A stretch of DNA of 64,000 nucleotides, taken from Patescibacteria group bacterium. Lineage in GTDB: Bacteria > Patescibacteriota > Patescibacteriia > JACRDY01. A program made the translations under genes and the position numbers. Within the stretch, counting starts at the first letter, position 1; each line of letters begins with the position of its first letter. Positions 769 to 64,000 of the stretch are shown here, in pieces. The stretch is from NCBI GenBank assembly GCA_041671565.1, contig JBAZBH010000003.1, positions 572 to 64,571 on the forward strand. The letters run 5' to 3'. Below the pieces are notes generated by a model. That model was not told where the DNA came from. It made no database searches and saw only the letters and a list, made by a program, of their open reading frames with translations.

Positions 769-776
769 TTCATTCT

Positions 777-13961: not shown

Positions 13962-13964
13962 AAT

Positions 13965-15525: not shown

Positions 15526-15526
15526 A

Positions 15527-15660
15527 ATGCAAAAATCAAAAATTAAAATGACAATTCAAAATTAAAAATGTCTGGTAGACTAGTTTATAGCTATAAACCG
15601 TTAAACAGCCACTAATTTTACATTTTTTCATTGTCATTTTCCATTTTGATTTTTAATTTT
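15527..15660. repeat. AT-rich palindrome family gtcattttccattttgatttttaatttt
   Basis: Related copy at 44445-44600 upstream of Cys-rich paralog 1. Confidence 0.5.
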
Positions 15661-15665
15661 TACAT

Positions 15666-17973: not shown

Positions 17974-18149
17974 GACAAGAAGTTAAGATATCGTAATGAC
18001 CCCGTCGCGGCGGGGTCATTTAGTTTAATTAGATAGGCTTATTTAGCCATGAATGAGCGAGATTTAGTAGAACGATGTGTAGGGGCAATTCACGAATTGC
18101 CCCAAACAAATCATCTTAATTCTACTAATATGTTTTTTCATCGCCTGCG

Positions 18150-18410
18150 GCGGGCTTGTCACTTTTGTGACCAAAAGTAACCAAAAGTCCCGGGGTGGCA
18201 AAAAGCCCGAGCTCGTGGCTTCTACCTACTTCTCGCTCCGCCTCACCTCGCAGTCGCTATCTTTGGTTCTATTCCTAGATATATCGCTTTGCGGCAACAT
18301 ATACCTACTTGATACTCGGGCAGGTCGGCTCGTCTCGGGGCTTTGCCACCCCGGACCCCGATTCTGGTTGGCTTATGTCTTTGTAGCGGTTCTGTCTAGT
18401 AGTTATGGGA
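18150..18410 (+). ncRNA. candidate structured non-coding element, copy 1 of 2; the ORF called across it is probably spurious
   Basis: Shares conserved ends with 33265-33560: 5' ttttgtgaccaaaagtaaccaaaagtcccgg..ggggtggcaaaaagcccg, 3' cggggctttgccaccccggaccccgattctggttgg; long-range complementarity between the ends. Confidence 0.35.
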
Positions 18411-18555: not shown

Positions 18556-18638
18556 CGCAGGGAGACCACATAGTGGTCGAGTGCGCTCGCTTGGCCACCG
18601 CCTCCGGCGGGGTCCCGCCGCAGGCGGGAAAAGCGAGA
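18556..18638 (+). repeat. partial tRNA-Ser-like copy with a 34-nt GC-rich insertion (direct repeat of 19033-19115)
   Basis: gcagggagaccacatagtggtcgagtgcgctcgcttgg[ccaccgcc..gcaggcggg]aaagcgag; lacks the T-arm and acceptor 3' strand. Confidence 0.6.
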
Positions 18639-18679: not shown

Positions 18680-18766
18680 CGGAGAGATCGCATAGTGGTC
18701 TAGTGCGCTCGCTTGGAAAGCGAGTGTGGGGAAACCCACCGGGGGTTCGAATCCCCCCCTCTCCGC
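18680..18766 (+). tRNA. tRNA-Ser (anticodon GGA), long variable arm
   Basis: Cloverleaf by eye: anticodon loop cTTGGAAa, variable arm GTGTGGGGAAACCCACC, T-loop GGTTCGAATCC. Confidence 0.7.
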
Positions 18767-18791: not shown

Positions 18792-19049
18792 ATGTACACA
18801 GTTTATATAATTGAAAGTTTGTCGAACGGTAGGCATTATATCGGCGTTACTTCTGATCTGGCTCAGCGTTTACGGCACCATAACAGTGGCGCCAACAGGT
18901 CAACTAAGAACAGGGGACCATGGAAAATAGTTTATTCTGAAGTTTTTCCCGATCAAAAAACGGCTTGGTTAAGAGAACGGCAAATTAAGAAATATAAAGG
19001 TGGCGAGGCGTTTAAAAAACTTTTGATAAAAAGCAGGGAGACCACATAG
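18792..19049 (+). CDS. small GIY-YIG nuclease family protein (YhbQ / COG2827-like)
   Basis: YTVYIIES..GRHYIGVT..L..RL..HN...WKIVYSE.F....A..RERQIKK; about 85 aa; stop codon lies inside the downstream tRNA-like repeat. Confidence 0.7.
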   Translation: MYTVYIIESLSNGRHYIGVTSDLAQRLRHHNSGANRSTKNRGPWKIVYSEVFPDQKTAWLRERQIKKYKGGEAFKKLLIKSRETT

Positions 19050-19153
19050 TGGTCGAGTGCGCTCGCTTGGCCACCGCCTCCGGCGGGGTCCCGCCGCAGG
19101 CGGGAAAAGCGAGTATATCGAAAGGTATCGGGGGTTCGAATCCCCCCTCTCTC
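19033..19153 (+). pseudogene. tRNA-Ser-like copy carrying a 34-nt insertion in the anticodon loop and an altered variable arm
   Basis: Complete cloverleaf-length copy ...gcttgg[34 nt]aaagcgag tatatcgaaaggtatc gggggttcgaatcccccctctctccgcc; direct repeat of 18556-18638. Confidence 0.45.
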
Positions 19154-19187
19154 CGCCATGGACTTATTGGGATTTAAAATAGCGACG

Positions 19188-20878: not shown

Positions 20879-21040
20879 ATAAAAGAATTTTTAATTTAAA
20901 ATTTCTAATTTTTAATCAATTTTTAAGGACTAATTTCTAATTTTAAAGGCTACAATAGAGTTCGTGGTTATTTAAAATTAAAAATTATAAATTCATTAAA
21001 AATTAAGAATTTTAAATTAAAAATTGCAATTCTCCCTGTT

Positions 21041-24345: not shown

Positions 24346-24428
24346 CAAGGATTGAAAGTAGCGGAGTGACACAGCCTCTGGCTGTGTTATAGTAAAGGCA
24401 GTAATTTTCTAAAAATAATTTTGAGTAT

Positions 24429-24500
24429 TCGGGGGTAGCTCAGTGGTAGAGCAGGTGGCTGTTAACCACCTTGTCGCAGGTTCGATCCCTGTCCCCCGAG
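24429..24500 (+). tRNA. tRNA-Asn (anticodon GTT)
   Basis: Cloverleaf by eye: acceptor TCGGGGG/CCCCCGA, D-arm GCTCAGTGGTAGAGC, anticodon loop CTGTTAA, T-loop GGTTCGATCC. Confidence 0.7.
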
Positions 24501-24524
24501 TTCTCAGAATTATTTTTTTTGCTC

Positions 24525-24600
24525 AGTGGTAGAGTCCGCCGCGGCGGATTAACCACCTTGTCGTCCGCCGATTCGGCGGATCCCCCGAGTTCTATCGCGG
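24525..24600 (+). repeat. degenerate tRNA-Asn fragment in which arms are replaced by tccgccgcggcgga and tccgccgattcggcgga hairpins
   Basis: gctcagtggtagag[tccgccgcggcgga]ttaaccaccttgtcg[tccgccgattcggcgga]tcccccgag aligned to the intact tRNA upstream. Confidence 0.6.
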
Positions 24601-24811
24601 ATTTTTTGTTTTGAAAAATATAGCCGGTGGCTGCTTGTCCCGCTTCAGCGAGCGCCAGCGAGCTGAGGCGGGATTAACCATCTGGTTATCTCCTACGGAA
24701 CCTTCTGAGTTTTAATGAAAAACATCAGCAAAACTGGTATTTTATGATGAGAGTTACATTAATAACTTAAAAGTGTTATACTGTTTATATAATTCATAAC
24801 TATAAATCACT

Positions 24812-25285
24812 ATGAAAAACAAAGAAATTGTTTGGCTGGTAGTGGCTATTCTGGTTATCGCGGTAATTGTCGGGGTTGTTTACTATGAGCTAAACAAAGA
24901 ACAATTGCCACCGTCGCCAATTAACATGGCTGATAATCAAGTGGAGATTTTGGTTGGTACTGAAAAAACCGGTGTGGTACTAGCGCCAAAGACAGAGGCG
25001 GGTTTGAGCTATCAACAAGTAGTTGATAAATATAAAGGTTACCGCTTCCAATTTAACGACCAGTGCGCCACCATTCCTAGCACTCAGACTTTTAAAAATG
25101 GAACGCGGGTGATGTTTGACAATCGAACAGCAGAACAAAAAACCATTGCTCTTGATGGTAAAGGCTATACCATCGGGTCGTATGGATTTATTATCTTGCC
25201 TTTGTCTGCTAGAACTCTACCCCATACCATCAAAGTGGATTGCGACCAACAATATAACACCGCTCAAATTTACTTACAAAAATAA
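24812..25285 (+). CDS. hypothetical secreted/membrane-anchored protein
   Basis: N-terminal transmembrane/signal segment; no family recognised. Confidence 0.4.
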   Translation: MKNKEIVWLVVAILVIAVIVGVVYYELNKEQLPPSPINMADNQVEILVGTEKTGVVLAPKTEAGLSYQQVVDKYKGYRFQFNDQCATIPSTQTFKNGTRVMFDNRTAEQKTIALDGKGYTIGSYGFIILPLSARTLPHTIKVDCDQQYNTAQIYLQK

Positions 25286-25359: not shown

Positions 25360-25445
25360 GTTGGTGGTCGTACCCCGCTAGGGAGAGTTAGTGAACTGTA
25401 CTGGATTAGCCACCTTGTCGCCCGCCGCGGTGAATCCCCCGAGCC
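25360..25445 (+). repeat. second degenerate tRNA-like fragment with a GC hairpin substitution
   Basis: ...ttagccaccttgtcg[cccgccgcggtga]atcccccgag; followed by hairpin terminators at 25448-25490. Confidence 0.45.
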
Positions 25446-25558
25446 TTGAAAAAAGCCAGGTTTAAGCCTGGTCTTTTTCTTTTTTAAGATAAAAAAGACC
25501 GCGGTGCCCAGAGTGTGGGCGCGGCGGTCGGGGGTTAAATGTGAGGATTGAAATGATG

Positions 25559-33144: not shown

Positions 33145-33264
33145 GATTAAGGAAATTAAATAGCGGAGTAACGGGGCATCTGCCCCGTTGTGCTTTTCGG
33201 AATGACACAGCCTCTGGCTGTGTTTTTTAGTTTGGTAGGATAAATTTTCTTTAGCCCTCGCCGG

Positions 33265-33560
33265 GCAGGCGTTACTTTTGTGACCAAAAGTAACCAAAAG
33301 TCCCGGCCTGCCCGCAATGCTTCGCATAGCAAAGCAGGCGGGGGTGGCAAAAAGCCCGATCTTCGTGGCACCTTTCTACTGCTCGCCCCGCTTCATCCCG
33401 CCAGTCGCGACTGGCGGGACGAGCCTCGCAGTCGCTACCTTTGGTTCTATTACCCCTATATATCGCTTTGCGGCAACATATATTTACTAGTTAGCCGAAA
33501 GGGTCGGTTCGTCTCGGGGCTTTGCCACCCCGGACCCCGATTCTGGTTGGTTTTGTACTT
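33265..33560 (+). ncRNA. candidate structured non-coding element, copy 2 of 2
   Basis: See 18150-18410; differs by internal insertions while the 5' and 3' conserved blocks are near-identical. Confidence 0.35.
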
Positions 33561-33770
33561 TTGAAGGAAAGACACTGTAGAGGAGTGCTCTAATAAAAGT
33601 CACCTTACAGCCTAACCGGCTGTTTTTTTGTTAGCTTTAGCCTAATTTAATTGTGGATAAATCCGAGTGGTTGCTTTTTATAGTTTGGTGGTGTATAATG
33701 GTATGTAGTGGAGGAATGTGGATAAAGGTGGGGAGAACTTAGACAAAGGGGGATAATAAAAATAAGGCTT

Positions 33771-35185: not shown

Positions 35186-35605
35186 GTGAGAATTCCCGTT
35201 ACTTTGGGCCTAACTATGACCACCTACATCCAAAACAAAAAAACCCACCTTCTCCGCCAAATCGGCGGATTCGGCGGGCAAGCAAAACAAAAAGACAACG
35301 GGCGCGAGACAAGTCGGGTTTTTAGTTATCGGCATTTAAATATCGGTTTAATCTGCCTGATAATTTTGACCGGATTTTTTTATTTAACCCAAGTCAACGC
35401 TTCGGCGGTCAAAGGCTATATTATTGCTGACCTAGGCGCGAAACTGGAAGCGGCCCAGACCGAGAACCGGAAACTGGAGTTAACCAGCCAGTCTTTGCAG
35501 TCAGTTGGTGATTTGGCAGAGAAAACCAAGGAGCTCGGTTTAGTGGACGCCGGTCAGGTGGAATATCTGCAAGCGCCGGGCGGGGTGGTGGCGGTGGCGA
35601 GGTAG
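35186..35605 (+). CDS. FtsL-like cell division protein (single transmembrane helix plus coiled coil)
   Basis: Position after mraZ-rsmH, single transmembrane helix, periplasmic coiled coil. Confidence 0.5.
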   Translation: MRIPVTLGLTMTTYIQNKKTHLLRQIGGFGGQAKQKDNGRETSRVFSYRHLNIGLICLIILTGFFYLTQVNASAVKGYIIADLGAKLEAAQTENRKLELTSQSLQSVGDLAEKTKELGLVDAGQVEYLQAPGGVVAVAR

Positions 35606-36584: not shown

Positions 36585-36907
36585 GCCCCTGGACGCTTTG
36601 TCACTCTTTCCCTTGGGCTCTCAAGATGCACATGCACTTGAAGTCCAAGGGATTTTTTTATACAATAACTATGCAGTTTGGAAAATTTGCGGCTACGGCT
36701 TCAAATCAAAACTGTTGAAGATCATTATTCCAGAATTTCGTTGGATATGTCTTGCGAAAGAGTGAAAATGCTTTCCATAATAAAAAACAGCCAGTTGGTG
36801 CCAGCAGCTAGTGGACTTCTATGTCCCAAATAAAATTCAACCCTAAGTCCGTCCGCCAACCGGCGGACGGACAAGGGGCGGTGACTAAAGACGGCTGGTG
36901 GCACATT

Positions 36908-39896: not shown

Positions 39897-40265
39897 ATGA
39901 AAAGTCAAAATCTACTCTTACTTTCAGGTAAATTTATCGCCAAAGACATCGTTGGTAATGTTTTATATTGGCCAGTTTGGTGGTATTCCGCCGGACTGGC
40001 GATTTTTGTTAAAGAGCGCTGGCAGAGCCTGCGGGATTTTGAAGGTGAAGTGGGGCTGACAGTTTGGATTGTTAACTGGTTCAAGCCAATGTATGGCGAG
40101 TCAGATCTGGTTGGCAAGGCGATCAGTTTTGTCATGCGGACGGTGATGATTGTTTTTAAGGCTTGGCAAATCGCGCTTTATTTCTTTTGCCAGGTGGCGG
40201 TGGTGGCTATCTGGCTACTTTTGCCGCCGGTCGCGGTTTGGCAGGTGGTTAAAGGGTTGATTTAA
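39897..40265 (+). CDS. hypothetical small membrane protein
   Basis: Three hydrophobic segments; no family recognised. Confidence 0.35.
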   Translation: MKSQNLLLLSGKFIAKDIVGNVLYWPVWWYSAGLAIFVKERWQSLRDFEGEVGLTVWIVNWFKPMYGESDLVGKAISFVMRTVMIVFKAWQIALYFFCQVAVVAIWLLLPPVAVWQVVKGLI

Positions 40266-40267
40266 AT

Positions 40268-40395
40268 AAGTATTCAGGGATCAGTATTCAGTATTCAGGG
40301 AACTATATCCGCGAACGGTGAATTTGAATCCCTCCCTGATCCCCGAATACTGTTCCCTGAATACTAATGCTTGAATACTGTTCCCTGAATACTCA
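40268..40395. repeat. palindromic repeat, gaatactgttccctgaatact family (copy 2)
   Basis: See 13965-14060; immediately upstream of the clpC-like gene. Confidence 0.65.
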
Positions 40396-43361: not shown

Positions 43362-44486
43362 ATGCTTGGTTTATATATTAATTATTTCCTCGCCTTCTCC
43401 GCCGCGTTCATCCTGGCGGTTGTTTTTACTTGGGCGGCGCGGGCTTTGGCGCTTCACTGGGGAGTCGTTGACCGGCCGGACGGCGGGCGGAAGTTGCACT
43501 TGGAGCCGGTGCCGCTGCTCGGCGGACTCGGAGTTTTTTTGGCTTTTTTCGCGGTGGTGTTTTATTTTGCCTATGGCACTGACATGCTGGTCGGCCAGAA
43601 TATTTTGCTGAAATACCTTTGGGCTTTGCTGGCGGCCGGCGGGCTCCTGATGATCGGCGGCGTTCTGGATGACAAGTTTAATCTCAAGCCGAAGTGGCAG
43701 ATCGTTTGGCCGATACTCGCGATTCTCGCGGTCATCGCCGGCGGCATCGGCGTCAGCAAAATCACCAATCCGTTTGGCGGTTTATTGTATTTGGACCAAT
43801 ATCAGTGGATTTTCTTTTGGCATAACGGCATTGCTTACAAGTTGACATTATTCGCCGATTTGTTAACCTTTTTTTGGCTCCTCGGCATGATGTACACGGT
43901 GAAACTCCTCGACGGGTTGGACGGCCTGGTGTCGGGTTTTGGCGCGATTGGCGCTTTGATTATTTTTCTTCTGTCCACGGCGACCCGTTGGTGGCAGCCG
44001 GACACGGCGCTCCTCGCGATCATTCTTTGCGGGGCAGCCTCCGGGTTTCTGGTCTGGAACCGCCATCCGGCTAAGATTTTCCTAGGCGAAGGCGGGCCGC
44101 TCTTTATTGGTTTTATGCTGGGAGTTTTGTCAATCATCGCCGGCGGCAAAATCGCCACCGCGCTACTGATCATGGGCGTGCCGATCTTGGATGTTCTCTG
44201 GGTGATTTTGCGGCGGCTGTTCTGGGAAAAGAAAAATCCTTTCCGCTCCGCCGACCGCGGCCATTTGCATTTCCGCCTTCTGGATATCGGCCTATCGCAC
44301 CGCCAAGCAGTCTGGGTGCTCTACCTTTTTGCCGCCGGGTTTGGCTCACTCGCGCTTTTTCTCCAAAGCCAGGACAAATTGATCGCGCTGGGCGCGGTGG
44401 CGGGGGTGATGATAGTACTCGGTGGAACTTTAGCAGTCGTTAGTCGTGAAAAAAATGTAAAAATAAAAAATCAAAATGGAAAATGA
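43362..44486 (+). CDS. polyprenol-phosphate N-acetylhexosamine-1-phosphate transferase (MraY/WecA family)
   Basis: DRPDGGRKLH..P.LGG, DDKFNLKP, VKLLDGLDGL, NRHPAKIFLGEGG motifs; start uncertain (43305 or 43362). Confidence 0.7.
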   Translation: MLGLYINYFLAFSAAFILAVVFTWAARALALHWGVVDRPDGGRKLHLEPVPLLGGLGVFLAFFAVVFYFAYGTDMLVGQNILLKYLWALLAAGGLLMIGGVLDDKFNLKPKWQIVWPILAILAVIAGGIGVSKITNPFGGLLYLDQYQWIFFWHNGIAYKLTLFADLLTFFWLLGMMYTVKLLDGLDGLVSGFGAIGALIIFLLSTATRWWQPDTALLAIILCGAASGFLVWNRHPAKIFLGEGGPLFIGFMLGVLSIIAGGKIATALLIMGVPILDVLWVILRRLFWEKKNPFRSADRGHLHFRLLDIGLSHRQAVWVLYLFAAGFGSLALFLQSQDKLIALGAVAGVMIVLGGTLAVVSREKNVKIKNQNGK

Positions 44487-44600
44487 CAATGAAAAATGTA
44501 AAATTAGTTCTTTACCCCTGATACCCCGGCTTATAGTAAGTAGTCAATCTACTAGACATTTTTAATTTTAAATTGTCATTTTCCATTTTGATTTTTCCAT
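44445..44600. repeat. AT-rich palindrome family gtcattttccattttgattttt
   Basis: See 15527-15660. Confidence 0.5.
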
Positions 44601-44614
44601 TTTCAATTATTTCT

Positions 44615-46270: not shown

Positions 46271-46372
46271 GGGATCAGGGAACAGTATGCAGTATTCAGG
46301 GGTTCTTATTTGCCGTCCGTGGATATAGCCCCTGAATACTGAATACTGTTCCCTGAATACTAATTATTAAAA
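46271..46372. repeat. palindromic repeat, gaatactgttccctgaatact family (copy 3)
   Basis: See 13965-14060; directly 3' of Cys-rich paralog 1. Confidence 0.65.
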
Positions 46373-48417: not shown

Positions 48418-49305
48418 ATGACTCTATTTAATATTATAATCTTCGGGATAATTATTGTTTGTCTTTTGGTGATTATTTTTATTGTCGGGCGGAAGTTTTC
48501 CAAATTAGCCCAAATTAATCTAGAAACTTTACCGGAAGTAAAGGCGAGCGCGACCAAAGAAAGAATTGTCCGGGCGAAGTTGGAAAGAAATATCTTAATT
48601 CCTTTTAGGCATTTTCTGAAAAAAGCCAAACCGGCGGCGGTGGTGGCAGGGGAGATTGTGCGGCGGTTAGTGGAGAAGACATTAGAATGGGAAAAGAAAT
48701 ACAGCCGACCGCTTAAAACCGGCGGGAAAACCGCCGAAACATCAGCGCAGAAAGTTGCCTTGGTGGCGGCGGGTTATGACCTGCTGGCGGCGGGTAAAGA
48801 AGCCGAGGCGGAAAAGAAGTTTATTGACGCCATTGCTCTGGATCCGCAGGCGGTTGAAGCCTACCATGGCCTGGGCGAGCTTTATTGGGAACAAGGCAAG
48901 TTAGCCGAAGCGCAAGAAACTTTTGAATATATTATTAAACTTAACGCCGATAATTACGACGCTCATTCGCACCTGGGCAATATCGCCGCGGCCAAAGGCG
49001 ACTGGGCGAAAGCGCGTGATTATCACCAGAAATCAATTAGCCTAGACTCTCAAGCGGCGGTGCATTATTTGGATATCGCCCGGGTTTATCAAGAAATGGG
49101 GGAGCCGGCTAAAGCCTATGAATCCCTGGAAAAAGCGGTTGGCCTGGAGCCGAATAACCCGCGAAACCTTGACGCTTTATTAAATTTGAGTATAATGATG
49201 AACAAGAAAAAGGAAGCTCGCGATCTTTTAAAAAAGTTGAGAGAAGTTAATCCGGAAAACCAGAAATTGGACGAGTTTGAAGGAATGATTCGGAAGATGA
49301 AATAA
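48418..49305 (+). CDS. membrane-anchored TPR-repeat protein
   Basis: N-terminal transmembrane helix; several 34-residue TPR-like repeats (AEA..KF..A..LDP, A...LG..Y). Confidence 0.55.
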   Translation: MTLFNIIIFGIIIVCLLVIIFIVGRKFSKLAQINLETLPEVKASATKERIVRAKLERNILIPFRHFLKKAKPAAVVAGEIVRRLVEKTLEWEKKYSRPLKTGGKTAETSAQKVALVAAGYDLLAAGKEAEAEKKFIDAIALDPQAVEAYHGLGELYWEQGKLAEAQETFEYIIKLNADNYDAHSHLGNIAAAKGDWAKARDYHQKSISLDSQAAVHYLDIARVYQEMGEPAKAYESLEKAVGLEPNNPRNLDALLNLSIMMNKKKEARDLLKKLREVNPENQKLDEFEGMIRKMK

Positions 49306-49306
49306 T

Positions 49307-49375
49307 GCCGTCGTAGCTCAGACCCGGCCCTAGCGGGCCGTAGGCCCGGGGCTGGTAGAGCAATCCCATGGCTCG
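49307..49375 (+). repeat. tRNA-Thr 5'-half pseudo-copy with a GC-rich insertion in the D-loop
   Basis: gccgtcgtagctcag[acccggccctagcgggccgtaggcccggggc]tggtagagcaatcccatgg aligned to the intact tRNA-Thr at 49413. Confidence 0.55.
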
Positions 49376-49412
49376 TTTCGTCTTTTAAGTAGTAAGTATA
49401 ATTTATAATTAC

Positions 49413-49488
49413 GCCGTCGTAGCTCAGTTGGTAGAGCAATTCCATGGTAAGGAATAGGTCCGCGGTTCAATTCCGCGCGACGGCTCCA
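49413..49488 (+). tRNA. tRNA-Thr (anticodon GGT), CCA encoded
   Basis: Acceptor GCCGTCG/CGACGGC, D-arm GCTCAGTTGGTAGAGC, anticodon loop ATGGTAA, T-arm CGCGGTTCAATTCCGCG, CCA at the 3' end. Confidence 0.75.
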
Positions 49489-49527
49489 GTTTTAATAACT
49501 GGTATTAGCAGTTGCAGTAAATAACTT

Positions 49528-49785
49528 ATGTATAATGTTTATATCTTAAAATTAGCCAATGCCGATTTGTATGTTGGGTCAACCGGTAACATTAAAAATA
49601 GAATAAAACAACATCAGGCGGGGCAGAGCCAATATACTAAGAAATGTTTGCCGGTTAAGTTAATATACTTCGAATGTTATTGTAGTAAGAAAGACGCTTT
49701 AATTAGAGAAAAGTTTTTAAAAAGCGGCAGAGGCAGGGAAGTAATCAAAAAACAATTAGAAAACACCCTTAAGGTCAAAAGATAA
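49528..49785 (+). CDS. small GIY-YIG nuclease family protein (YhbQ/COG2827-like), second copy
   Basis: MYNVYILKLANADLYVGSTGN..NR..QH; same family and length as 18792-19049; embedded between tRNAs. Confidence 0.65.
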   Translation: MYNVYILKLANADLYVGSTGNIKNRIKQHQAGQSQYTKKCLPVKLIYFECYCSKKDALIREKFLKSGRGREVIKKQLENTLKVKR

Positions 49786-49884
49786 TTTGAGGTAGTGCCA
49801 GTTTGTCAACTGGGGCTGATCCGCCGAATCGGCGGACTGGCTTTGCCTTCGGGGCCGACGAATGATATTTTAATAGTTATATAA

Positions 49885-49966
49885 GGGTCGGTACCAAAGC
49901 GGTCAACTGGGGCTGACTGTAAATCAGCTGGCTTTGCCTTCGGGGGTTCGAATCCCTCCCGGCCCA
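49885..49966 (+). tRNA. tRNA-Tyr (anticodon GTA), long variable arm
   Basis: Acceptor GGGTCGG/CCGGCCC, anticodon loop CTGTAAA, variable arm TGGCTTTGCCTTCG, T-loop GGTTCGAATCC. Confidence 0.7.
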
Positions 49967-50342
49967 TATCAGAGAGAACGAATTAGTTAGTTCGTTCTTT
50001 TTGATTTATAACTGGGGCTGATCCGCCGAATCGGCGGACTGGCTTTGCCTTCGGGGGTTCGAATCCCTCCCGGCCCATATCAGAGAGAACGAATTAGTTA
50101 GTTCGTTCTTTTTGATTTATAACTGGGGCTGATCCGCCGAATCGGCGGACTGGCTTTGCCTTCGGGGGTTCGAATCCCTCCCGGCCCATATCAGAGAGAA
50201 CGAATTAGTTAGTTCGTTCTTTTTGATTTATAACTGGGGCTGATCCGCCGAATCGGCGGACTGGCTTTGCCTTCGGGGGTTCGGACCTGTCCGCCGTAGC
50301 ATCCGCCAGCAGGCGGAGCGGTGGCGGATCCCTCCCGGCCCA
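49967..50342 (+). repeat. three tandem ~111-nt units: terminator-like hairpin plus a tRNA-Tyr 3' fragment with the anticodon arm replaced by tccgccgaatcggcgga; the last unit has a 44-nt T-loop insertion
   Basis: Units at 49967-50077, 50078-50188 and 50189-50342; a partial unit also at 49806-49856 upstream of tRNA-Tyr. Confidence 0.8.
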
Positions 50343-50867
50343 AATTAAAAACATCTCAAACAGTCAGAGGTGTTTTTTTGTAACATTCTTAGTTAACCCG
50401 CGTCTAATTAGTTAGTAGACACTTTTTTTATGACAATTAATGGCCAAAATTTATCCAGCCTCGCGGCCGGTCTGCGGCCGAGCCGTTTTAGCCCCCGCGC
50501 CAAATATGCCTTGGCCGCGGCGACTTGCCTTAAGTTCGGCGGGCTGATTTTTTGGCTAATAATCAGGGGTTAAGCTAAAAAATAGCAAATTATTTTTAAA
50601 TGCCTGGTTTTAAAACAGCCGGGTTTTTTAACTGTCATAATTCGCTAGAAAATGCCCGTCTTGGCCGGCAAACGGTTAAAATAAGGCATTAATCCATTTA
50701 TCCACAATTTCCTTGACGGCAGCCGTTAAACTGCTATACTACAGCCAGTTTACCGCAGACCACGGGCAATCAATAAGCCCCGTGCAGGTAAAAGAGCCAG
50801 ATTTTGGCTAAATTTATGTCTGCGGCTAGATCCGCAGATTTTTATTTTATATTGAAACATTATATTT

Positions 50868-51395
50868 ATGCCAAAATCTAAACAACAGAAGGAAGTAGAA
50901 GTTAAGGAATTAACTGAGAAATTCAGTAAAGTTAAGTCCGTGGTTTTTGCCGATTTGCAAAAACTTCGCGTCGCGGAAAACACCGAGCTTCGCCGGCTCT
51001 GCCGCAACGAAAAAATTGACTGCGTGGTCGCCAAAAAAACTTTATTGAAGCGGGTTTTGGACAGCCATGGCTTGGGTGAAGTCGACACCAGCGTGCTTAC
51101 CGGCAGTGTGGCGACCGTCATCAGTTATGGCGATGAAGTGGCGCCAGCCAAAATTTTGAGCAAGTTTAATAAAGAACATGAAAAACTGCTCATTTTGGGC
51201 GGTATTTTGGAAAAGAAATTTGTCGGTCTGGATGTCATCAAAAGCTTGGCGCAATTGCCGTCTAAAGACGAATTGATCGCCAAAGTCGTGGGCAGTATTG
51301 CCGCGCCGCTTTCCGGCTTCGTCAATGTTTTGCAGGGTAATCTCCGGGGTTTGGTCTATACCTTACAAGCGATCAAAGACAAAAAAAGCAATTAG
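50868..51395 (+). CDS. rplJ: 50S ribosomal protein L10
   Basis: Length, sequence pattern and position directly upstream of rplL. Confidence 0.85.
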   Translation: MPKSKQQKEVEVKELTEKFSKVKSVVFADLQKLRVAENTELRRLCRNEKIDCVVAKKTLLKRVLDSHGLGEVDTSVLTGSVATVISYGDEVAPAKILSKFNKEHEKLLILGGILEKKFVGLDVIKSLAQLPSKDELIAKVVGSIAAPLSGFVNVLQGNLRGLVYTLQAIKDKKSN

Positions 51396-58587: not shown

Positions 58588-58846
58588 TAATTAAAAATTA
58601 AGAATTAATAATTAAGGTGCTAGGCCGTCGGAACTGGGATTAAGGATTAGGAGCTAAGATCCGTCAGCTGACGGACTTAATTCTTAATTCTTAATTCTTA
58701 ATTCTTTTTTTGTGCAACCTAATCTCGCTCAAACTTATTATCGGGATGAACAGCAAAAAAACCGTCAGCCGCGGCCGTGGCTGTATTGGCTGATTTTCGC
58801 CGGGGTGGCGGCCGTCGCCGCAATTGCGATTGAATTGGTTTAAAAG

Positions 58847-58918
58847 CACAGATTTACACAGATTAACACAGATTAGCACGGATCTGTGAGTATCTGTGTT
58901 AATTTGTGAAGATTTGTG
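58847..58918. repeat. palindromic hairpin cacagatttacacagattaacacagat... bracketing the 5' side of Cys-rich paralogs 2-3
   Basis: Near-identical element at 62351-62421 on the 3' side of paralog 3. Confidence 0.7.
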
Positions 58919-58921
58919 TTT

Positions 58922-60571
58922 ATGCAATGTAAAAACTGCCAATCCATCTTCACTATCTACCCCGAGGACCAAAAGTTCTACGCTAAAATTGGCGTGCCCG
59001 AGCCGACAAGCTGCCCGGATTGCCGGCAACAAAACCGTTTAGCTTGGCGCAACGAGCGGTTTTTGTATAAAAGAAAATGCGATCTCTGTCAAAAAGATAT
59101 TATTTCTTTTTATTCGCCGGACAAGCCTTATATTCAATATTGCCCGGAATGTTGGTGGAGCGACAAATGGGAAACGCCGGCGTTAGACTACGATCCCAAT
59201 CGGCCATTCTTTGAGCAATGGGCTGAACTTTTACGCCAGACGCCGCACTTAGCATTGATTATTTCCCATGGGGAAAACAGCGATTACTGCCCACACTCGG
59301 TTTATTACAAAAATTGTTATCTCTGTGTTTCCGGAGTGACGGGTGAAAATATTTTTTATTCTTATTGGGTTAATAATTCTTTTGAATGTTTGGATTGTAG
59401 TTTATGTTTTGATTTGCAACAGTGCTATGAATGTCTATATTGTCGGAATCTTTTTTCTTCTTATTATTGTTTAGATTGCGAGAACTCGTCGGAGTTGGCG
59501 TTTTGCCGTGATTGCGTTAGTTGTCATAATTGCCTTGGTTGTGTTGGTCTCCGTCATCAGGAGTATCAAATTTTTAATCAAAAAGTCAGCTCAGAGGAAT
59601 ATCAACGGCAATTGGCCGAGGTCAAAGCTAATCCGCAATTATTTGCCAAAAAATTTCGTGAGTTTAGTCTTAAATTCCCCTGTCTTTTTGCTGACATTCA
59701 ACATAGTGAAAATTCCACCGGTGATCGTTTGACTAGTTGTAAAAATTCCCATAATTGTTTTGACGCGGAAAATTTGGAGGACTGTGCTTATATTTGGAAT
59801 CTACCACAAGGCGCAAGCGCCTGTCAGGATATTAATTACTCACCAAAAGCAGAAATGAGTTATGACGCCATGAGTATTGTGAATAGTAAATACATATTAA
59901 ATAGCGTCAGTTGCTGGGATTGCTCTTTTGTTAGTTATTCTTGGCAATGTTTTTACGGTCAAAATCTTTTTGGTTGCATCGGCTTAAAACACGGCAATTA
60001 TCAGATTTTGAATAAAAAATATTCCGAGGAAGAGTATAACCAGTTGAAGAAAAAAATTATTGACGACATGGTCGCGCAAGGAATTTACGGAAAACTTTTT
60101 TCAATAGAGTATTCGCCGTTTGCTTATAATGAGACCAGCGCGGCGGAGCATTTTCCTTTAACCAAGGAGGGGATTTTGCGGCGCGGCTGGAGTTGGCAGG
60201 ATAATTTACCGGGTACTTTTGGTCAGGGCACGGTTGGCAATCAACATTTAACCTTAGTTGATATTGATGAGAAAATCTTAAACGCGGTTTTCACTTGTAG
60301 TTTATGCCAAAAAAATTATAAACTGATTAAGCCGGAATTAAAATTTTATCGCCTGCATGGCTTAATCTTACCTCATCATTGCCATGATTGCCGTTATGCT
60401 TTAAGAATGAAACTGCGTAATCCGCACCGGCTGTGGCATCGGCAATGTATGTGCGAGAATGCTGAACATAATCATCAAGAGCGGTGTCAGAACGAATTTG
60501 AAACCACCTATTCTCCCGACCGGCCGGAAAAGGTTTATTGCGAGGAGTGCTACCGGAAGGAGATCTATTAA
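58922..60571 (+). CDS. Cys-rich paralog 2
   Basis: MQCKNCQSIFTIYPEDQKFYAKIGVPEPTSCPDCRQQNRLAWRNER...; C-terminus RPEKVYCEECYRKEIY. Confidence 0.6.
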   Translation: MQCKNCQSIFTIYPEDQKFYAKIGVPEPTSCPDCRQQNRLAWRNERFLYKRKCDLCQKDIISFYSPDKPYIQYCPECWWSDKWETPALDYDPNRPFFEQWAELLRQTPHLALIISHGENSDYCPHSVYYKNCYLCVSGVTGENIFYSYWVNNSFECLDCSLCFDLQQCYECLYCRNLFSSYYCLDCENSSELAFCRDCVSCHNCLGCVGLRHQEYQIFNQKVSSEEYQRQLAEVKANPQLFAKKFREFSLKFPCLFADIQHSENSTGDRLTSCKNSHNCFDAENLEDCAYIWNLPQGASACQDINYSPKAEMSYDAMSIVNSKYILNSVSCWDCSFVSYSWQCFYGQNLFGCIGLKHGNYQILNKKYSEEEYNQLKKKIIDDMVAQGIYGKLFSIEYSPFAYNETSAAEHFPLTKEGILRRGWSWQDNLPGTFGQGTVGNQHLTLVDIDEKILNAVFTCSLCQKNYKLIKPELKFYRLHGLILPHHCHDCRYALRMKLRNPHRLWHRQCMCENAEHNHQERCQNEFETTYSPDRPEKVYCEECYRKEIY

Positions 60572-60672: not shown

Positions 60673-62349
60673 ATGCCTAGCTGTAAAAACTGTAATCAAT
60701 TTTTCACCATCTACCCCGAGGACCAAAAGTTCTACGCTAAGATTGGCGTGCCCGAGCCGACCGAATGCCCGGACTGTCGGCAACAACGGCGTATTGGCTG
60801 GCGGAATTTTTTTAATTTGTATGAACGAAAGTGTGAGCTGACTGGCGCGAAAATTATCTCGATGTTCGGCCCGGAGCCGGGGTATAAAGTAATCAACCCG
60901 AAAGACTGGTACTCGGATAAATGGAATCCGCTGGATTACGGTCGCGATTATGATTTTAGTAAATCCTTTTTCAGCCAGTTTGCCGAGCTTTACCGGGCGA
61001 TACCGCATATGGCGCTGATCCAATTAAATTGTTATAACAGCGATTATTGCAATATCATCGGCAACGCTAAAGGTTGTTATATGATGTTTGGTTGTGTGAA
61101 TTCGGAAAACTGCCTTTACGGCCATGTCGTTTGGCAGTGCCACGATTGTTATGATTGCTTGTATTTGCGGAAATGCGAGCTTTGTTATCAGGCGATTGAC
61201 TGCGACGAGTCTTACGGTTTGTTTTACTGTAGCGATTGCGCTGGTTGTAATAACTGCCGCTATACTTACCACTGCAAGGGTTGCCAGGATTGTGTTGGTT
61301 GTTACGGCCTGATCAATCAGCGGAATTATGTCTTGAACCAACCGACGGCCAATGGCGATGATTTCCAGGTTAAGGCGGCGGCATTCATGGCTTTAGGCGA
61401 AAAAGAAAAAGCCGCCAGAATCGCGGAATTAAAACGAACCGTGCCGGTTAAAGAAAGGGAAATGGTGGGCGCAGTGAATTGTAGCGGCAATTATATCTAT
61501 CACAGCAAAAATTGCCACGATGCTTATGATGTTAAAGATTGCGAGGATTGCCGTTATGCCTCTTCGATGGAGTTTCATAAAGACGCTTACGATGTCAGTT
61601 TTACCGCTTGGCGCGGGGAACTAATGTACAATAATCTGACCACTCATGGCCGCAAGATGATCGGCTGCCACCATTGCTTTAGCCAGACGGAAAATTTGTG
61701 TTATTGCCAAGAAACCAACTCGGTTAAAGATTGCTTCGGTTGTATAGGCCTACACAACAAAGAGCAGTATTGCATTTTGAATAAAAAATATTCCGAAGGC
61801 GAATACAATAGTTTGAAAGAAAAGATTATTAAACAAATGACGGCAGCCCCAGCATCCCAGCATGCGCGGGACAAGTCCGCGGGGCAAGTGGGGGAATGGG
61901 GCGAATTTTTTCCGCTCGCTGACTCGCCTTACAGTTATAATGAAAGTATTGTTAATGAATACTTTCCCTTAACTAAAGAGCAGGCGACAGCCAAAGGCTA
62001 CCGCTGGTTGGACCGCAACCAGCGCGAATACCAGCCGCAGAGTTACCAAATGCCGGCCGATATTAAAGAAGTAAAAGACGAAATTTTGCAAGAAGTTTTG
62101 GCTTGCGTTAAATGCGGACGGAATTATAAACTGGTTAAGCCCGAGTTGGATTTTTATCGCCAATATAATCTGCTGGCGCCGACGGAATGCTTCTACTGCC
62201 GGAACGAGGCCAGGCTAGCAAAACGCAACCCGCGCAAGTTATTTATTCGGCAATGCGGTTTTTGCGGCAAAGAAATCAACACCACCTACGCGCCGGACCG
62301 GCCGGAGAAGGTTTATTGCGAGGAGTGCTATCGGAAAGAAATATATTAA
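60673..62349 (+). CDS. Cys-rich paralog 3
   Basis: MPSCKNCNQFFTIYPEDQKFYAKIGVPEPTECPDCRQQRR...; C-terminus identical in style. Confidence 0.6.
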   Translation: MPSCKNCNQFFTIYPEDQKFYAKIGVPEPTECPDCRQQRRIGWRNFFNLYERKCELTGAKIISMFGPEPGYKVINPKDWYSDKWNPLDYGRDYDFSKSFFSQFAELYRAIPHMALIQLNCYNSDYCNIIGNAKGCYMMFGCVNSENCLYGHVVWQCHDCYDCLYLRKCELCYQAIDCDESYGLFYCSDCAGCNNCRYTYHCKGCQDCVGCYGLINQRNYVLNQPTANGDDFQVKAAAFMALGEKEKAARIAELKRTVPVKEREMVGAVNCSGNYIYHSKNCHDAYDVKDCEDCRYASSMEFHKDAYDVSFTAWRGELMYNNLTTHGRKMIGCHHCFSQTENLCYCQETNSVKDCFGCIGLHNKEQYCILNKKYSEGEYNSLKEKIIKQMTAAPASQHARDKSAGQVGEWGEFFPLADSPYSYNESIVNEYFPLTKEQATAKGYRWLDRNQREYQPQSYQMPADIKEVKDEILQEVLACVKCGRNYKLVKPELDFYRQYNLLAPTECFYCRNEARLAKRNPRKLFIRQCGFCGKEINTTYAPDRPEKVYCEECYRKEIY

Positions 62350-62350
62350 A

Positions 62351-62421
62351 CACAGATTTACACAGATTAACACAGATACTCACGGATCTGTGCTGATCTG
62401 TGTAAATCTGTGAAATCTGTG
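62351..62421. repeat. palindromic hairpin cacagattta... (3' bracket)
   Basis: See 58847-58918. Confidence 0.7.
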
Positions 62422-62425
62422 TTTT

Positions 62426-64000
62426 ATGAATGATCCTTTTGTCATCCGCGGGGATAAAATCAAGGGCGCCAGCTTGTCGCGCGATAAGCGGCTAAGTTGG
62501 ACCGAAGGGATTTTTGAAACCGCCGGCTCGGGCCAAATGACGCTCGGTTCGGAACGGAGCCAATTTTTGGGTTCGGCGATTTCGGAAAAGAAGATTAAGT
62601 TGTTTTTAGTTATCAGTTTATTGCTTCTGGCTTCGCTTCTGGGGCGGAGTTTTTATTTGCAGACGGTCAAAGGCGCCTATTACCACAATCTGGCCGAGGG
62701 CAATCGGCTGAGAATTTCTTCGCTACCGGCTTCGCGCGGCGTGATTTTTGACCGGACCGGTCAGCAACTAGTTAAAAATGTTCCGGATTTTAATTTATTA
62801 ATCACCCCGGCCGATTTGCCGGCTGACACCGTGGCGCGCCTCAAAGTTTTGACGGAAGTTTCTAGCTTGGTTAATTTGTCGGTGGCGGAAATCAATAATT
62901 TAATCAGCGAACACGAGCCTTATATTTATCAGCCGATTTTGATCAAATCCGGTTTGGATTATCAAGCGACGCTGCGCGGCAAACTGAAAGAAGCCGAGTG
63001 GCCGGGTGTTAGCCTGACCACCGGTTCGCGGCGCGATTATCTTTTGGCTTCAGGCGAGGAAACGGCTTATTCTTTGGCGCATGTCCTTGGTTATAACGGC
63101 CAACTGTCCAAAACTGAATACGAAAAGCACGCCGGCGAAGGCTATTTTCTTAACGATCAAATCGGCAAAACCGGGCTGGAGTTATATTATGAAAAAGAGC
63201 TCAAGGGTTATAATGGCCAAAAACAAGTGGAAGTTGACGCGCTGGGCCGGGAGAAGGAGATTATCGGCCAAACCGAAGCCATCGCCGGCCAAGATTTAAT
63301 TTTAAATATTGATTACGGTTTGCAAAAGGAAGCCGAGAAGGCTCTCAGCGCCGCTTTAAAATCTTTTAATAAGCGCCGCGGAGCGGTGGTGGCGCTAAAT
63401 CCGCAAAACGGCGAAATTTTGGCTTTAGTGTCACTGCCGGCCTATGACAGCAATAAGTTTTCCGCCGGCATTTCCGTGGCCGATTATAGTCTCTTAAGCA
63501 ATAATCCAGAGCGGCCGCTCTTTAACCGCGTTGTTAGCGGCGCTTATCCGTCCGGTTCCACCATCAAGCCGGTGATGGCGACAGCGGCTTTAGCCGAAGG
63601 TGTAATCACGCCGCAGACGACATTCAATAGCGTGGGCGGGATAAAAATTTTGGATTGGTTTTTTCCGGATTGGAAAGCCGGCGGCCATGGCATTACTAAT
63701 GTTTATAAGGCGATTGCCGAATCAGTCAACACTTTTTTTTACATGATTGGCGGCGGTTATCCGGCAGATGGCAATCCGACGCACCCTTATCAGTTTAATG
63801 GCTTGGGGCCGGAGAAAATTACCGCCTGGCTGAAAAAATTTGGCCTGGGGACGGCGACGGGGATTGATTTGAACGGCGAAGCCGACGGCTTTGTGCCATC
63901 GGTGGAGTGGAAAAATAAAACTACCGGCGAGCAGTGGTATATCGGCGACACTTACAATTTGTCCATTGGCCAGGGCAACTTACTGGTGACGCCTTTGCAA
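62426..64000 (+). CDS. penicillin-binding protein 2 / FtsI-type transpeptidase (3' end outside the window)
   Basis: N-terminal transmembrane helix, dimerisation domain, SxxK-region context (..GSTIKP..), frame open to the window edge. Confidence 0.75.
   Translation, partial: MNDPFVIRGDKIKGASLSRDKRLSWTEGIFETAGSGQMTLGSERSQFLGSAISEKKIKLFLVISLLLLASLLGRSFYLQTVKGAYYHNLAEGNRLRISSLPASRGVIFDRTGQQLVKNVPDFNLLITPADLPADTVARLKVLTEVSSLVNLSVAEINNLISEHEPYIYQPILIKSGLDYQATLRGKLKEAEWPGVSLTTGSRRDYLLASGEETAYSLAHVLGYNGQLSKTEYEKHAGEGYFLNDQIGKTGLELYYEKELKGYNGQKQVEVDALGREKEIIGQTEAIAGQDLILNIDYGLQKEAEKALSAALKSFNKRRGAVVALNPQNGEILALVSLPAYDSNKFSAGISVADYSLLSNNPERPLFNRVVSGAYPSGSTIKPVMATAALAEGVITPQTTFNSVGGIKILDWFFPDWKAGGHGITNVYKAIAESVNTFFYMIGGGYPADGNPTHPYQFNGLGPEKITAWLKKFGLGTATGIDLNGEADGFVPSVEWKNKTTGEQWYIGDTYNLSIGQGNLLVTPLQ

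Follow-up and report, generated by a model that had tools for sequence, protein, structure and literature searches.

The window analysed here, 64,000 nucleotides (nt) of a Patescibacteria metagenome-assembled genome (MAG) whose numbering is used throughout, contains at 49-50 kb a tRNA operon that is interpreted, with moderate confidence, as occupied by a minimal Slx1-like GIY-YIG selfish element. This element would comprise an 85-residue nuclease gene and a short, conserved, GC-rich palindromic hairpin, here CCGCCGAWTCGGCGG, and the tandem array of tRNA-Tyr fragments lying downstream of tRNA-Tyr would be a by-product of its repeats.

The window encodes four tRNA genes according to both ARAGORN and Rfam: Ser(GGA), Asn(GTT), Thr(GGT) and Tyr(GTA). 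At the locus of interest (Table 1), a pseudo-tRNA-Thr 5' half precedes the intact tRNA-Thr and the GIY-YIG open reading frame (ORF), which is followed directly by a pseudo-tRNA-Tyr (copy A), the intact tRNA-Tyr, the array and a terminator-like hairpin. ARAGORN, Rfam and Pfam agree with the positions that a first-pass annotation, made from the letters alone, had given for tRNA-Thr, the ORF and tRNA-Tyr. The disrupted tRNA-Thr with a GC hairpin in its D-loop was also correctly described: 31 nt of GC-rich hairpin (49322-49352) are swapped for a single D-loop T, the 5' half folds at -35.8 kcal/mol, and an independent Logan contig (L049) reproduces it together with the start of tRNA-Thr at 100% identity before ending inside the repeat. 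The patched tRNA-Tyr copies share one substitution, in which the anticodon stretch CTGTAAATCAG is swapped for the perfect hairpin TCCGCCGAATCGGCGGA. The copies within the array had been listed, and copy A, upstream of the intact gene, had been overlooked; it consists of a degenerate acceptor and D region with AACTGGGGCTGA, then the hairpin (49820-49836), then the variable arm to 49854, and contains a fourth copy of the 47-nt hairpin-patched segment (49808-49854, repeat search). Upstream, a promoter-like site could, as a pattern match, drive the entire tRNA-Thr/ORF/tRNA-Tyr unit. Since the element lies within the tRNA operon and on the tRNA strand, it would probably be expressed from the tRNA promoter. 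A sequence resembling the terminal terminator-like hairpin, aaaacatctcgctggaggtgttttttt, lies directly 3' of tRNA-Tyr in a relative (L055).

The ORF at this locus matches the Pfam GIY-YIG family (PF01541, E 1.4e-13), as does a second ORF at the tRNA-Ser locus of the window (E 1.7e-18). The two proteins are 35% identical, and a six-frame hidden Markov model (HMM) search of the window detects no GIY-YIG ORF beyond them. The residues expected of the GIY-YIG superfamily (Y5, Y15, R25, H29 and E49) are invariant among 18 homologues; the active site is conserved and apparently intact. Against the PDB, the 18-homologue profile retrieves BH0048 (1ZG2, E 2.5e-13) and EF2693 (1YWL, 2.6e-9), next eukaryotic SLX1 (about 1e-4), and I-TevI (0.07) and UvrC (0.4) only weakly. 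Structurally, the AlphaFold2 model (predicted local distance difference test score, pLDDT, 87) shows the beta-beta-alpha-beta-alpha core expected for GIY-YIG proteins, and Foldseek ranks its matches as the profile search does, with 1ZG2 and Slx1 at the top. Profile and model together place the protein as a bare catalytic domain of the prokaryotic Slx1-like/UPF0213 branch, and the window subfamily is distinguished by a C-terminal REKFLKSGRGRE motif. The catalytic domain fills all 85 residues (Pfam, AlphaFold2), leaving no separate DNA-binding domain. The protein is therefore not filed in the family of SegB, a phage homing endonuclease compared below, but only as working like it.

Among 1.84 billion representatives searched, this very large family matched 27,827 clusters at 50% identity with E<=1e-3, and 7,787 with E<=1e-10; the subfamily was found at 1 locus among 2.9 million viral contigs. 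Many called family ORFs extend into tRNA sequence, as clear individual cases show, and a count of T-arm tripeptides in the ORF extensions of the 150 best representatives was too noisy to yield a figure. PADLOC and PHROGs give weak, generic GIY-YIG or homing-endonuclease matches. Some database proteins (P0138 and others) contain two GIY-YIG stretches, for example within 214 residues; presumably either the gene calls span tandem copies of the element or the fusions are real.

Genomic neighborhood analysis ties the nuclease to tRNA genes well beyond the window. With the C-terminal motif of the family as query, a scan of one genome per GTDB species identified 44 homologous loci, hosted by Patescibacteria, Elusimicrobiota, Omnitrophota, Bacteroidota, Verrucomicrobiota, Planctomycetota, Chloroflexota, Calditrichota, Bdellovibrionota and MAGs labelled Gammaproteobacteria (Pseudomonadota). 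In 35 of these loci the ORF has a same-strand tRNA gene no more than 150 nt away, usually at 3-40 nt; at least 14 identities are represented (Ala, Arg, Asp, Cys, Glu, Gly, His, Ile, Leu, Met, Phe, Pro, Ser, Val), and the loci with no tRNA nearby are mostly tandem arrays or contig ends. Exact 16-54-nt fragments of the neighbouring tRNA occur outside annotated tRNA genes in at least 27 of the 44 loci, mostly on the opposite side of the ORF from the tRNA, and gapped alignments add further loci. Two layouts emerge from these alignments: type A, with the tRNA downstream of the ORF and a 5' fragment upstream (about 15 loci), and type B, with the tRNA upstream and a 3' fragment downstream (about 12 loci). 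This polarity is what the homology-arm model presented below predicts. At several loci (L007, L011, L013, L019, L021, L027, L033 and the window Ser locus), the ORF and the intact tRNA are enclosed between 5' and 3' pseudo-halves, and in L007, L011, L019 and the window Ser locus both halves carry the same hairpin. A mechanistic link between the GIY-YIG gene and tRNA fragments, which the first-pass annotation had proposed from the window, is thus strongly supported as a property of the family, recurring across the 44 loci and in the closest relatives of the window ORF.

Tandem arrays recur as well. The tRNA-Phe locus L031 contains a 386-nt unit repeated 3.5 times (93%) with four ORF copies, three of them truncated (73, 73 and 44 residues); the tRNA-Met locus L024 a 370-nt unit repeated 3.8 times (95%) with four intact ORFs; the tRNA-Pro locus L039 a 385-nt unit repeated 2.2 times (94%) with two ORFs; and the tRNA-Ile locus L022 a 77-nt unit repeated 2.5 times (94%) that, as in the window, contains no ORF. 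The unit boundaries of all four arrays fall in the T-loop. The divergence of their units excludes an assembly artefact for these arrays. Near family genes, contigs are typically short and broken.

The hairpin is the second recurrent component of these loci. In its usual form, a perfect 6-bp stem with a 3-nt loop and a CGCC/GGCG core replaces or splits tRNA arms or loops; its versions include TCCGCC-nnn-GGCGGA, CCCGCC-nnn-GGCGGG, TGCGCC-nnn-GGCGCA and GTCGCC-n-GGCGAC, and another common form is the 17-mer YCCGCCGAWTCGGCGGR. Canonical NNNGCC-N3-GGCNNN 15-mers number 44 in the 21.3 kb lying within 250 nt of the ORFs, against 6 in the remaining 164 kb of the same loci (2.07 versus 0.04 per kb, about 50-fold), and any perfect GC hairpin occurs within 150 nt of the ORF in 33 of the 44 loci (5.07 versus 0.37 per kb). 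GC hairpins had been noticed at the window locus from the start; their status as a conserved hallmark of the family had not been recognised. Their places are of two kinds: behind the D-arm or within the anticodon arm (His, Gly, Tyr, Cys, Leu, Pro, Asp, Val), and to either side of the TTCGAA of the T-loop (Pro, Ser, Glu, Val, Ile, Gly, Phe). Compensatory variants are found both in the stem (TCCGCCG/CGGCGGA versus CCCTCCG/CGGAGGG) and in its extensions (CTTG/CAAG versus CTGG/CCAG).

The ORF clade of the window carries CCGCCGAWTCGGCGG beside tRNA-Tyr (window, L055, L058), tRNA-His (L005), tRNA-Cys (L004) and tRNA-Leu (L012), and two relatives outside the tree (L056 and L057, ORFs 63% and 60% identical to that of the window) carry it beside tRNA-Gly. 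In other clades the hairpin is GTCGCC..GGCGAC, or TTCGAA is bracketed by a TGCGCC/CCCGCC pair. The hairpin class tracks the ORF clade, not the tRNA or the host, which argues that the hairpin is inherited with the ORF as one element; the tRNA-like flanks match, and are read as copies of, whichever tRNA adjoins. Random filler added during repair, of the P-nucleotide kind, was ruled out because the identical 17-mer stands beside different tRNAs in different phyla. A comparison with dispersed repeats (repetitive extragenic palindromes, REP, and miniature inverted-repeat transposable elements, MITE) gives a mixed picture. In the window, hairpins of the TCCGCC...GGCGGA type occur in intergenic positions away from tRNAs at 5834-5849 (TCCGCCAACCGGCGGA), 35253-35269 (TCCGCCAAATCGGCGGA) and 36847-36872 (GTCCGTCCGCCAACCGGCGGACGGAC), and the motif may also be a small dispersed palindromic repeat of the window genome; in the 44 other loci, however, the enrichment near ORFs is 14- to 50-fold.

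The closest relatives of the window ORF show the same components in simpler arrangements. Locus L058 (ORF 72% identical) reads tRNA-Ile, pseudo-Tyr, ORF, intact tRNA-Tyr and tRNA-Val, without an array; its pseudo-Tyr consists of tRNA-Tyr positions 1-32, TCCGCCGAATCGGCGGA and CTGGCTTTCGCCT. Locus L055 (68% identical) preserves the synteny of the window, with a TPR gene, a GC-patched pseudo-Thr, tRNA-Thr, a pseudo-Tyr (GGGTCGGTACC, CCGCCGAATCGGCGG and variable arm), the ORF and tRNA-Tyr; terminator-like sequence follows tRNA-Tyr directly, again without an array. In the more distant L052, which has the same TPR-tRNA synteny, tRNA-Thr and tRNA-Tyr lie 1 nt apart with neither ORF nor pseudo-Thr, and downstream of tRNA-Tyr stand GC-patched pseudo-Tyr 3' fragments with no ORF, every one with a terminator of its own. 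The gene is present in L055 and absent from L052, a comparison between distant relatives (L10 58% identical). A search for an empty site in a sister strain through L10 homologues found none: the nearest L10 is 62% identical, L050 lacks the synteny, and L052 alone was informative. These layouts suggest that the ORF is an insertion between two tRNA genes that normally abut, and that the window ORF lineage stays at tRNA-Tyr across different neighbourhoods. The ancestral order in the window would have been pseudo-Tyr with hairpin, ORF and tRNA-Tyr, as in L055 and L058, with a later rearrangement. The idea that the intact tRNA-Tyr is an imported rescue copy was ruled out: it closely resembles the tRNA-Tyr of L052, and the pseudo-copy is the degenerate one.

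Two further features of the relatives were recorded. In L057, a 459-residue large serine recombinase (Resolvase, Recombinase and Zn_ribbon_recom domains; 757-2136, minus strand) is encoded directly downstream of a pseudo-Gly/GIY-YIG ORF/tRNA-Gly unit, possibly as a separate element on the same tRNA. In L058, a tRNA-Val lies between 5' and 3' pseudo-Val pieces with GC-rich inserts and no ORF (1480-1750), an arrangement resembling the solo footprint of such an element.

The array of the window was recovered by Tandem Repeats Finder (TRF) as identical units of the period first reported, and the described contents of each unit were all present. A spacer with a terminator-like hairpin and T5 (-19.4 kcal/mol, z -7.4) is followed by a patched tRNA-Tyr 3' fragment in the order AACTGGGGCTGA, hairpin, variable arm, T-arm and 3' acceptor strand. 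The last unit (C3) additionally contains the 44-nt GC-rich insertion already noted, a set of nested hairpins (50284-50327) that takes the place of one T-loop A (GGTTCG|ATCCC) and brings its fold to -61.9 kcal/mol; it appears, from its sequence, to correspond to the GC-patched pseudo-Tyr fragment of L052. Infernal, recommended earlier as a check, finds no RF00005 match on the array units; they lack an intact anticodon arm and are not tRNAs, and their tRNA-like matches stay at about 18 bits or below (mascRNA 18.4 bits, tmRNA 3' end 13.7 bits). In the predicted minimum free energy fold of the unit at 50010-50077, the retained GGGCUG pairs with the 3' acceptor strand CGGCCC, giving a mini tRNA-like shape with a pseudo-acceptor stem, GC hairpin, variable arm and T-arm; this fold is marginal (z -1.97) and may be coincidence.

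How many units exist is less firmly established than what they contain. A MEGAHIT contig of the same population (L001, flanks 100% identical) joins 49854 to 50232 through the 47-nt repeat and so contains neither tRNA-Tyr nor any array unit; it represents either a genuine deletion haplotype formed by recombination at that repeat or an assembler shortcut. A Logan contig (L003) begins within the last unit, and exact-match scans of Joint Genome Institute (JGI) metagenome contigs for the array and last-unit sequences gave no match. Copy-number variation could be judged from L001, L003 and L049 alone, and the count of three rests on a single assembly. It is unlikely that the array, and possibly the position of tRNA-Tyr, arose from an expanded or mis-resolved repeat around one real tRNA-Tyr and one real pseudo-copy. 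That possibility draws on the 100% identity of the units, which puts them beyond counting by short reads, on the L001 jump, on the breaks of L003 inside the array and of L049 inside the tRNA-Thr repeat, on the silence of the JGI contigs and on the absence of an array from the close relative L055. However, a false junction between hairpin and intact T-arm would require an assembler to cross the 23 nt common to tRNA-Tyr and the pseudo-copy, with a k-mer of 23 or less, and the junction of hairpin, variable arm and intact T-arm is possible only with at least one genuine extra unit. Comparable arrays with diverged units exist in other genomes, and the objection concerns copy number alone: the pseudo-tRNAs, hairpins and ORF are reproduced in other contigs.

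With the ORF standing before the pseudo-copy and the 111-nt units identical, the array reads as a rearrangement that is both recent and local. Flanking the swapped stretch, 12 nt and 23 nt (AACTGGGGCTGA and CTGGCTTTGCCTTCGGGGGTTCG) are common to tRNA-Tyr and the downstream pseudo-Tyr, and unequal recombination between the two could have produced the 111-nt units. The internal units would have taken their intact T-arm from tRNA-Tyr, the last unit would retain the older 44-nt insert, and L001 would correspond to a reciprocal-type event between the upstream and the last patched copies.

These observations can be joined in a model of selfish copying. The nuclease would break the tRNA gene or stimulate recombination there. 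A disabled or partial duplicate of the neighbouring tRNA, with the hairpin replacing or splitting its anticodon arm, D-loop or T-loop, would lie on one side of the ORF and the intact tRNA on the other, and the two would act as homology arms; since tRNA genes are conserved, such arms could serve in other genomes as well. In repair, the ORF and hairpin would then be copied wherever that tRNA gene occurs, with a functional tRNA left behind. The hairpin patch would remove the sensitive stretch from the duplicate and shorten the uninterrupted homology that could delete the ORF. Further rounds of this process, together with ORF loss and unequal crossing-over among the tRNA, pseudo-tRNA and hairpin repeats, would leave solo patched pseudo-tRNAs (pseudo-Thr, pseudo-Asn) and tandem arrays. 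Of the origins listed in the first-pass annotation, a tRNA-derived miniature element comes closest to the evidence; what would move, however, is the nuclease gene with its hairpin, the tRNA parts being copies of the local target. For the hairpin itself, a recognition site, an immunity patch and an RNA element are all candidates; Slx1 is structure-specific, and GC palindromes can form cruciforms.

Several points weigh against this interpretation. For every member of the family, activity, target and movement are inferred, and a bare domain with no DNA-binding module would have at least 14 tRNA identities to locate. The adjacent intact tRNA still has the site that the patch removes, which poses a problem of self-cutting, of which tandem arrays may be a symptom. 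Pseudo-Thr and a pseudo-Tyr 3' fragment are kept in relatives whose neighbouring proteins are only 58-68% identical, so the retained fragments could be functional rather than debris. The sole empty site comes from the distant relative L052, not from a sister strain, and the copy number of the window array is not confirmed by any second assembly. The ORF tree, built on about 85 residues, is poorly resolved, and in an earlier phylogenomic survey prokaryotic Slx1-like proteins were taken for repair factors passed on vertically (PMC1564403).

One alternative, given a small share of the probability, assigns the patched pseudo-tRNAs a function as RNAs working with or against the GIY-YIG protein (tRNA mimics that divert tRNA-cleaving defence nucleases, RNA antitoxins to the nuclease, or elements in the processing or stability of its mRNA), whose dose the array would raise. 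The compensatory changes preserve pairing and the loop-proximal CGCC/GGCG core is kept across phyla, as would suit an RNA, but the stems are perfect palindromes without G-U bias and nothing marks RNA over DNA structure; counts of G:T versus A:C mismatches are uninformative here, the canonical hairpins being nearly all perfect. Cloverleaf-like layouts are retained, with arms swapped for hairpins of similar length, whereas the pseudo-copies are for the most part incomplete, without a full acceptor stem. The ORF lies on the tRNA strand throughout, yet a strong terminator-like hairpin stands ahead of each unit, so that expression would need read-through. Pseudo-Thr and pseudo-Tyr fragments persist in relatives, but the closest of these have one pseudo-copy and no array. 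The units do retain the variable arm of tRNA-Tyr, which is the cut site of the Septu defence system (PMC13096335), and a reported fusion joins a prokaryotic Slx1-like domain to TrmH, a tRNA methyltransferase (PMC1564403); on the other side, characterised GIY-YIG enzymes act on DNA, and at gathering score Rfam returns tRNA alone, corresponding to the intact tRNA-Thr and tRNA-Tyr. Decoys, which had been suggested for the array, are accordingly weakly placed, with a terminator-like hairpin before each unit and no array in the closest relatives. A type III toxin-antitoxin system of the ToxIN kind was rejected in view of the array lying downstream of tRNA-Tyr behind terminators, the GIY-YIG fold and relatives with a single pseudo-copy; PADLOC gave weak partial matches.

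In another reading, which is very improbable, the protein serves the host and is not selfish at all: as a bacterial Slx1, it would resolve stalled forks, R-loops or cruciforms where tRNA genes are heavily transcribed, and the duplications and hairpins would either result from its action or be obstacles on which it works. Its closest characterised relative, Slx1, is a structure-specific nuclease that maintains repeat number in ribosomal DNA (PMC1564403), GC palindromes can extrude as cruciforms, and the family is very large and nearly all cellular. Against such a role, the distribution is patchy: the gene is missing at the same locus in L052, stands beside different tRNAs in different genomes and occurs in multiple diverged copies per genome. 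Tandem ORF arrays also hold decaying copies, contigs break around family genes, and the hairpin is inherited with the ORF, not the host.

A more speculative extension of the selfish reading, given only a slim chance, is nucleic-acid-guided homing. A patched pseudo-tRNA would be transcribed along with the tRNA operon, its hairpin would bind the nuclease, and its stretches of tRNA identity, 16-54 nt long, would base-pair with the DNA of tRNA genes, in logic analogous to transposon-encoded TnpB/IscB with their omega RNAs. If true, a bare-domain protein could serve at least 14 tRNA targets, and the scheme would account both for the hairpin following the ORF while the flanks change with the target and for the retained segments staying identical to the local tRNA.

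Scarcely credible is the last alternative, also put forward in the first-pass annotation, in which the fragments are attL/attR-type scars of repeated site-specific integration and excision at tRNA 3' ends and the GIY-YIG gene is cargo or a neighbour. Although directly repeated 3' fragments of tRNAs classically mark integrative elements (PMC9897764 and references therein), type B loci show that polarity, and a large serine recombinase gene adjoins the locus in one relative (L057), the repeat-bounded segments measure about 110-480 nt with GIY-YIG as the sole ORF with a family match, and about half of the family loci are type A, duplicating the 5' part upstream, as do pseudo-Thr, pseudo-Ser and pseudo-Tyr A in the window. 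The called genes around the locus in L001 and L002 (TIM, TPR, L10, L7/L12, Q_salvage and one 244-residue product with no Pfam match) include no integrase or recombinase family match, and there is no room for one between the repeats; the conserved patches, their co-inheritance with the ORF and the ORF association in 35 of 44 loci have no place in such a model. To our knowledge, upstream duplication of the 5' part is not a product of classical tRNA-targeting integrases.

Returning to the element interpretation, patched pseudo-copies accompany all four tRNA genes of the window (Table 1). At the Ser locus, the second GIY-YIG ORF and the intact tRNA-Ser lie between two pseudo-copies. A group I or archaeal-type intron in the pseudo-tRNA-Ser was ruled out, given an insert of 35 nt, no Rfam intron match and a degenerate acceptor stem. 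At least two ORF-less, GC-patched pseudo-copies follow tRNA-Asn (regions 24502-24720 and 25370-25447): the one just 3' of the intact gene has TCCGCCGCGGCGGA for the 5' side of the anticodon stem and TCCGCCGATTCGGCGGA for the T-arm, and a second copy at about 25406-25444 contains CCCGCCGCGGTGA; one of the pseudo-Asn copies carries the same 17-mer as the Tyr patches in reverse orientation. A six-frame HMM search found no GIY-YIG gene or remnant near tRNA-Asn. A third, more degenerate pseudo-tRNA-Asn may lie at about 24640-24712, and an unannotated 157-residue ORF (24812-25285) with no Pfam match is located between the pseudo-copies.

Other repeats occur in the window. A non-coding element of about 250-300 nt is present twice (18141-18382 and 33258-33561, about 86% identity), one copy lying just upstream of the Ser locus; it contains ACCAAAAGTA repeats and GC-rich stems and matches no Rfam family at threshold. 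Many intergenic regions hold long imperfect palindromes built of tandem 7-10-nt repeats, such as GTATATG and its complement: 704-768, 13959-14060, 15520-15667 (similar to 44453-44608), 20886-21025, 40265-40365 (similar to 46275-46369) and 58841-58929 (similar to 62347-62432), along with many TRF entries (for example TTACAGC x6.4 at 16144 and GTAGCTT x5.6 at 35609). They look like a genome-wide hairpin family and are possibly terminators.

Table 1. Coordinates of the tRNA genes, patched pseudo-tRNAs, GIY-YIG ORFs and bordering features of the window.
Position	Strand	Feature	Remarks
18557-18637	+	Pseudo-tRNA-Ser, 5' part	35-nt double GC hairpin in anticodon loop; left copy of an 81-nt perfect direct repeat
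18681-18766	+	Intact tRNA-Ser(GGA)	ARAGORN and Rfam
18792-19049	+	Second GIY-YIG ORF, 85 residues	Stop codon within downstream pseudo-tRNA-Ser
19033-19158	+	Pseudo-tRNA-Ser, full-length	Same anticodon-loop hairpin; right copy of the 81-nt repeat, including 3' part
24428-24501		Intact tRNA-Asn(GTT)	
24521-24592	+	Pseudo-tRNA-Asn	ORF-less; just 3' of tRNA-Asn
48418-49305		TPR-protein gene	Left border of the locus
49169-49196	+	Promoter-like site	TTGACG-16-TATAAT; 11/12 consensus match (consensus scan)
49307-49371	+	Pseudo-tRNA-Thr, 5' half	tRNA-Thr positions 1-15 and 17-35
49413-49488	+	Intact tRNA-Thr(GGT)	ARAGORN; Rfam 69 bits
49528-49785	+	GIY-YIG ORF, 85 residues	Domain-only; UPF0213/prokaryotic Slx1-like
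49789-49862	+	Pseudo-tRNA-Tyr A	Degenerate acceptor and D region; directly after ORF
49885-49966	+	Intact tRNA-Tyr(GTA)	ARAGORN; Rfam 52.7 bits
49928-50283	+	Tandem array	Period 111 nt; 3.2 copies; 100% matches; score 712 (TRF)
49967-50009, 50078-50120, 50189-50231	+	Array spacers	Terminator-like hairpin
50010-50077, 50121-50188	+	Array tRNA-Tyr 3' fragments	Hairpin-patched
50232-50342	+	Last unit, C3	Same hairpin patch plus 44-nt insert
50350-50379	+	Terminal terminator-like hairpin	CATCTC...GAGGTG then T7; sequence reading
50868-51395		rplJ	Right border of the locus

No description of a nuclease combined with patched pseudo-tRNAs was found in the open-access full-text literature, and one may exist elsewhere. 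The novelty would lie in how a selfish element of a known sort, built on a nuclease and resident at tRNA genes, keeps its target intact in an unusual manner and has a conserved hairpin as its partner. If the interpretation is correct, a large family (about 7,800 clusters at E<=1e-10), whose closest solved members are annotated merely as 'UPF0213' hypothetical proteins, would consist of minimal tRNA-gene selfish elements, not repair factors. It would also account for the hairpin-patched tRNA-like fragments beside tRNA genes in Patescibacteria and several other phyla, and for the contig breaks. The conserved 15-17-nt hairpin and the 85-residue nuclease form a compact, directly testable system of protein-nucleic-acid recognition.

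Each known system shares part of this architecture. The UPF0213 proteins (BH0048, 1ZG2; EF2693, 1YWL; PMC1564403) are the best sequence and fold matches and are likewise domain-only, at about 85-105 residues. They are treated, however, as vertically inherited, repair-related proteins of unknown function, with no link to tRNAs, pseudo-tRNAs or hairpins in that survey, which derived selfish GIY-YIG enzymes from a UvrC-like and not an Slx1-like branch (PMC1564403). Integrase-borne islands and prophages (PMC9897764) share the tRNA fragments, as attL/attR, but span 5-100 kb, whereas the inserts described here measure 0.25-0.4 kb and contain no recombinase; here, too, 5'-part duplications are as common as 3'-part ones, and the partial copies carry conserved hairpin patches. 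The group I introns with homing endonucleases in Patescibacteria tRNA genes (PMC13011429) are also selfish, nuclease-linked insertions that prefer the anticodon region. Unlike them, the present inserts are 15-44-nt hairpins with no Rfam intron match, and the tRNA is saved by duplication. An essential target would thus be preserved by duplication, not by splicing, as with introns and inteins, or by site-specific recombination, as with islands.

The nearest parallel in behaviour is SegB of phages T4 and T6, a free-standing GIY-YIG homing endonuclease in tRNA gene clusters that cuts inside tRNA genes at the preferred motif RAWTSGAAC (PMC2330249; PMC13096335). Read on the other strand, this motif is the T-loop sequence GTTCSAWTY. 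The nuclease activity of SegB, together with phage UvsX and UvsY, is needed for tandem amplification of a 718-bp unit of tRNA-Tyr and segB (PMC13096335; PMC2330249), and the amplified SegB copies are reported to carry a 28-residue C-terminal truncation (PMC13096335). In both systems a GIY-YIG gene lies among tRNA genes, with a statistical tie to many isotypes; and as SegB amplifies a tRNA-Tyr unit, so the arrays described here begin in or near the T-loop, and inserts split the T-loops of pseudo-copies. SegB differs in being longer and phage-borne, whereas the present protein is a bare 85-residue Slx1-like domain encoded on the chromosome and nearly absent from viral contigs. The SegB units comprise a full tRNA and the nuclease gene, whereas the 111-nt units of the window have neither, and hairpin-patched pseudo-tRNAs are not described at SegB loci in the portions of that literature consulted. 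Should the interpretation hold, the SegB principle of nuclease-driven tandem amplification at tRNA genes would extend from phages to bacterial chromosomes.

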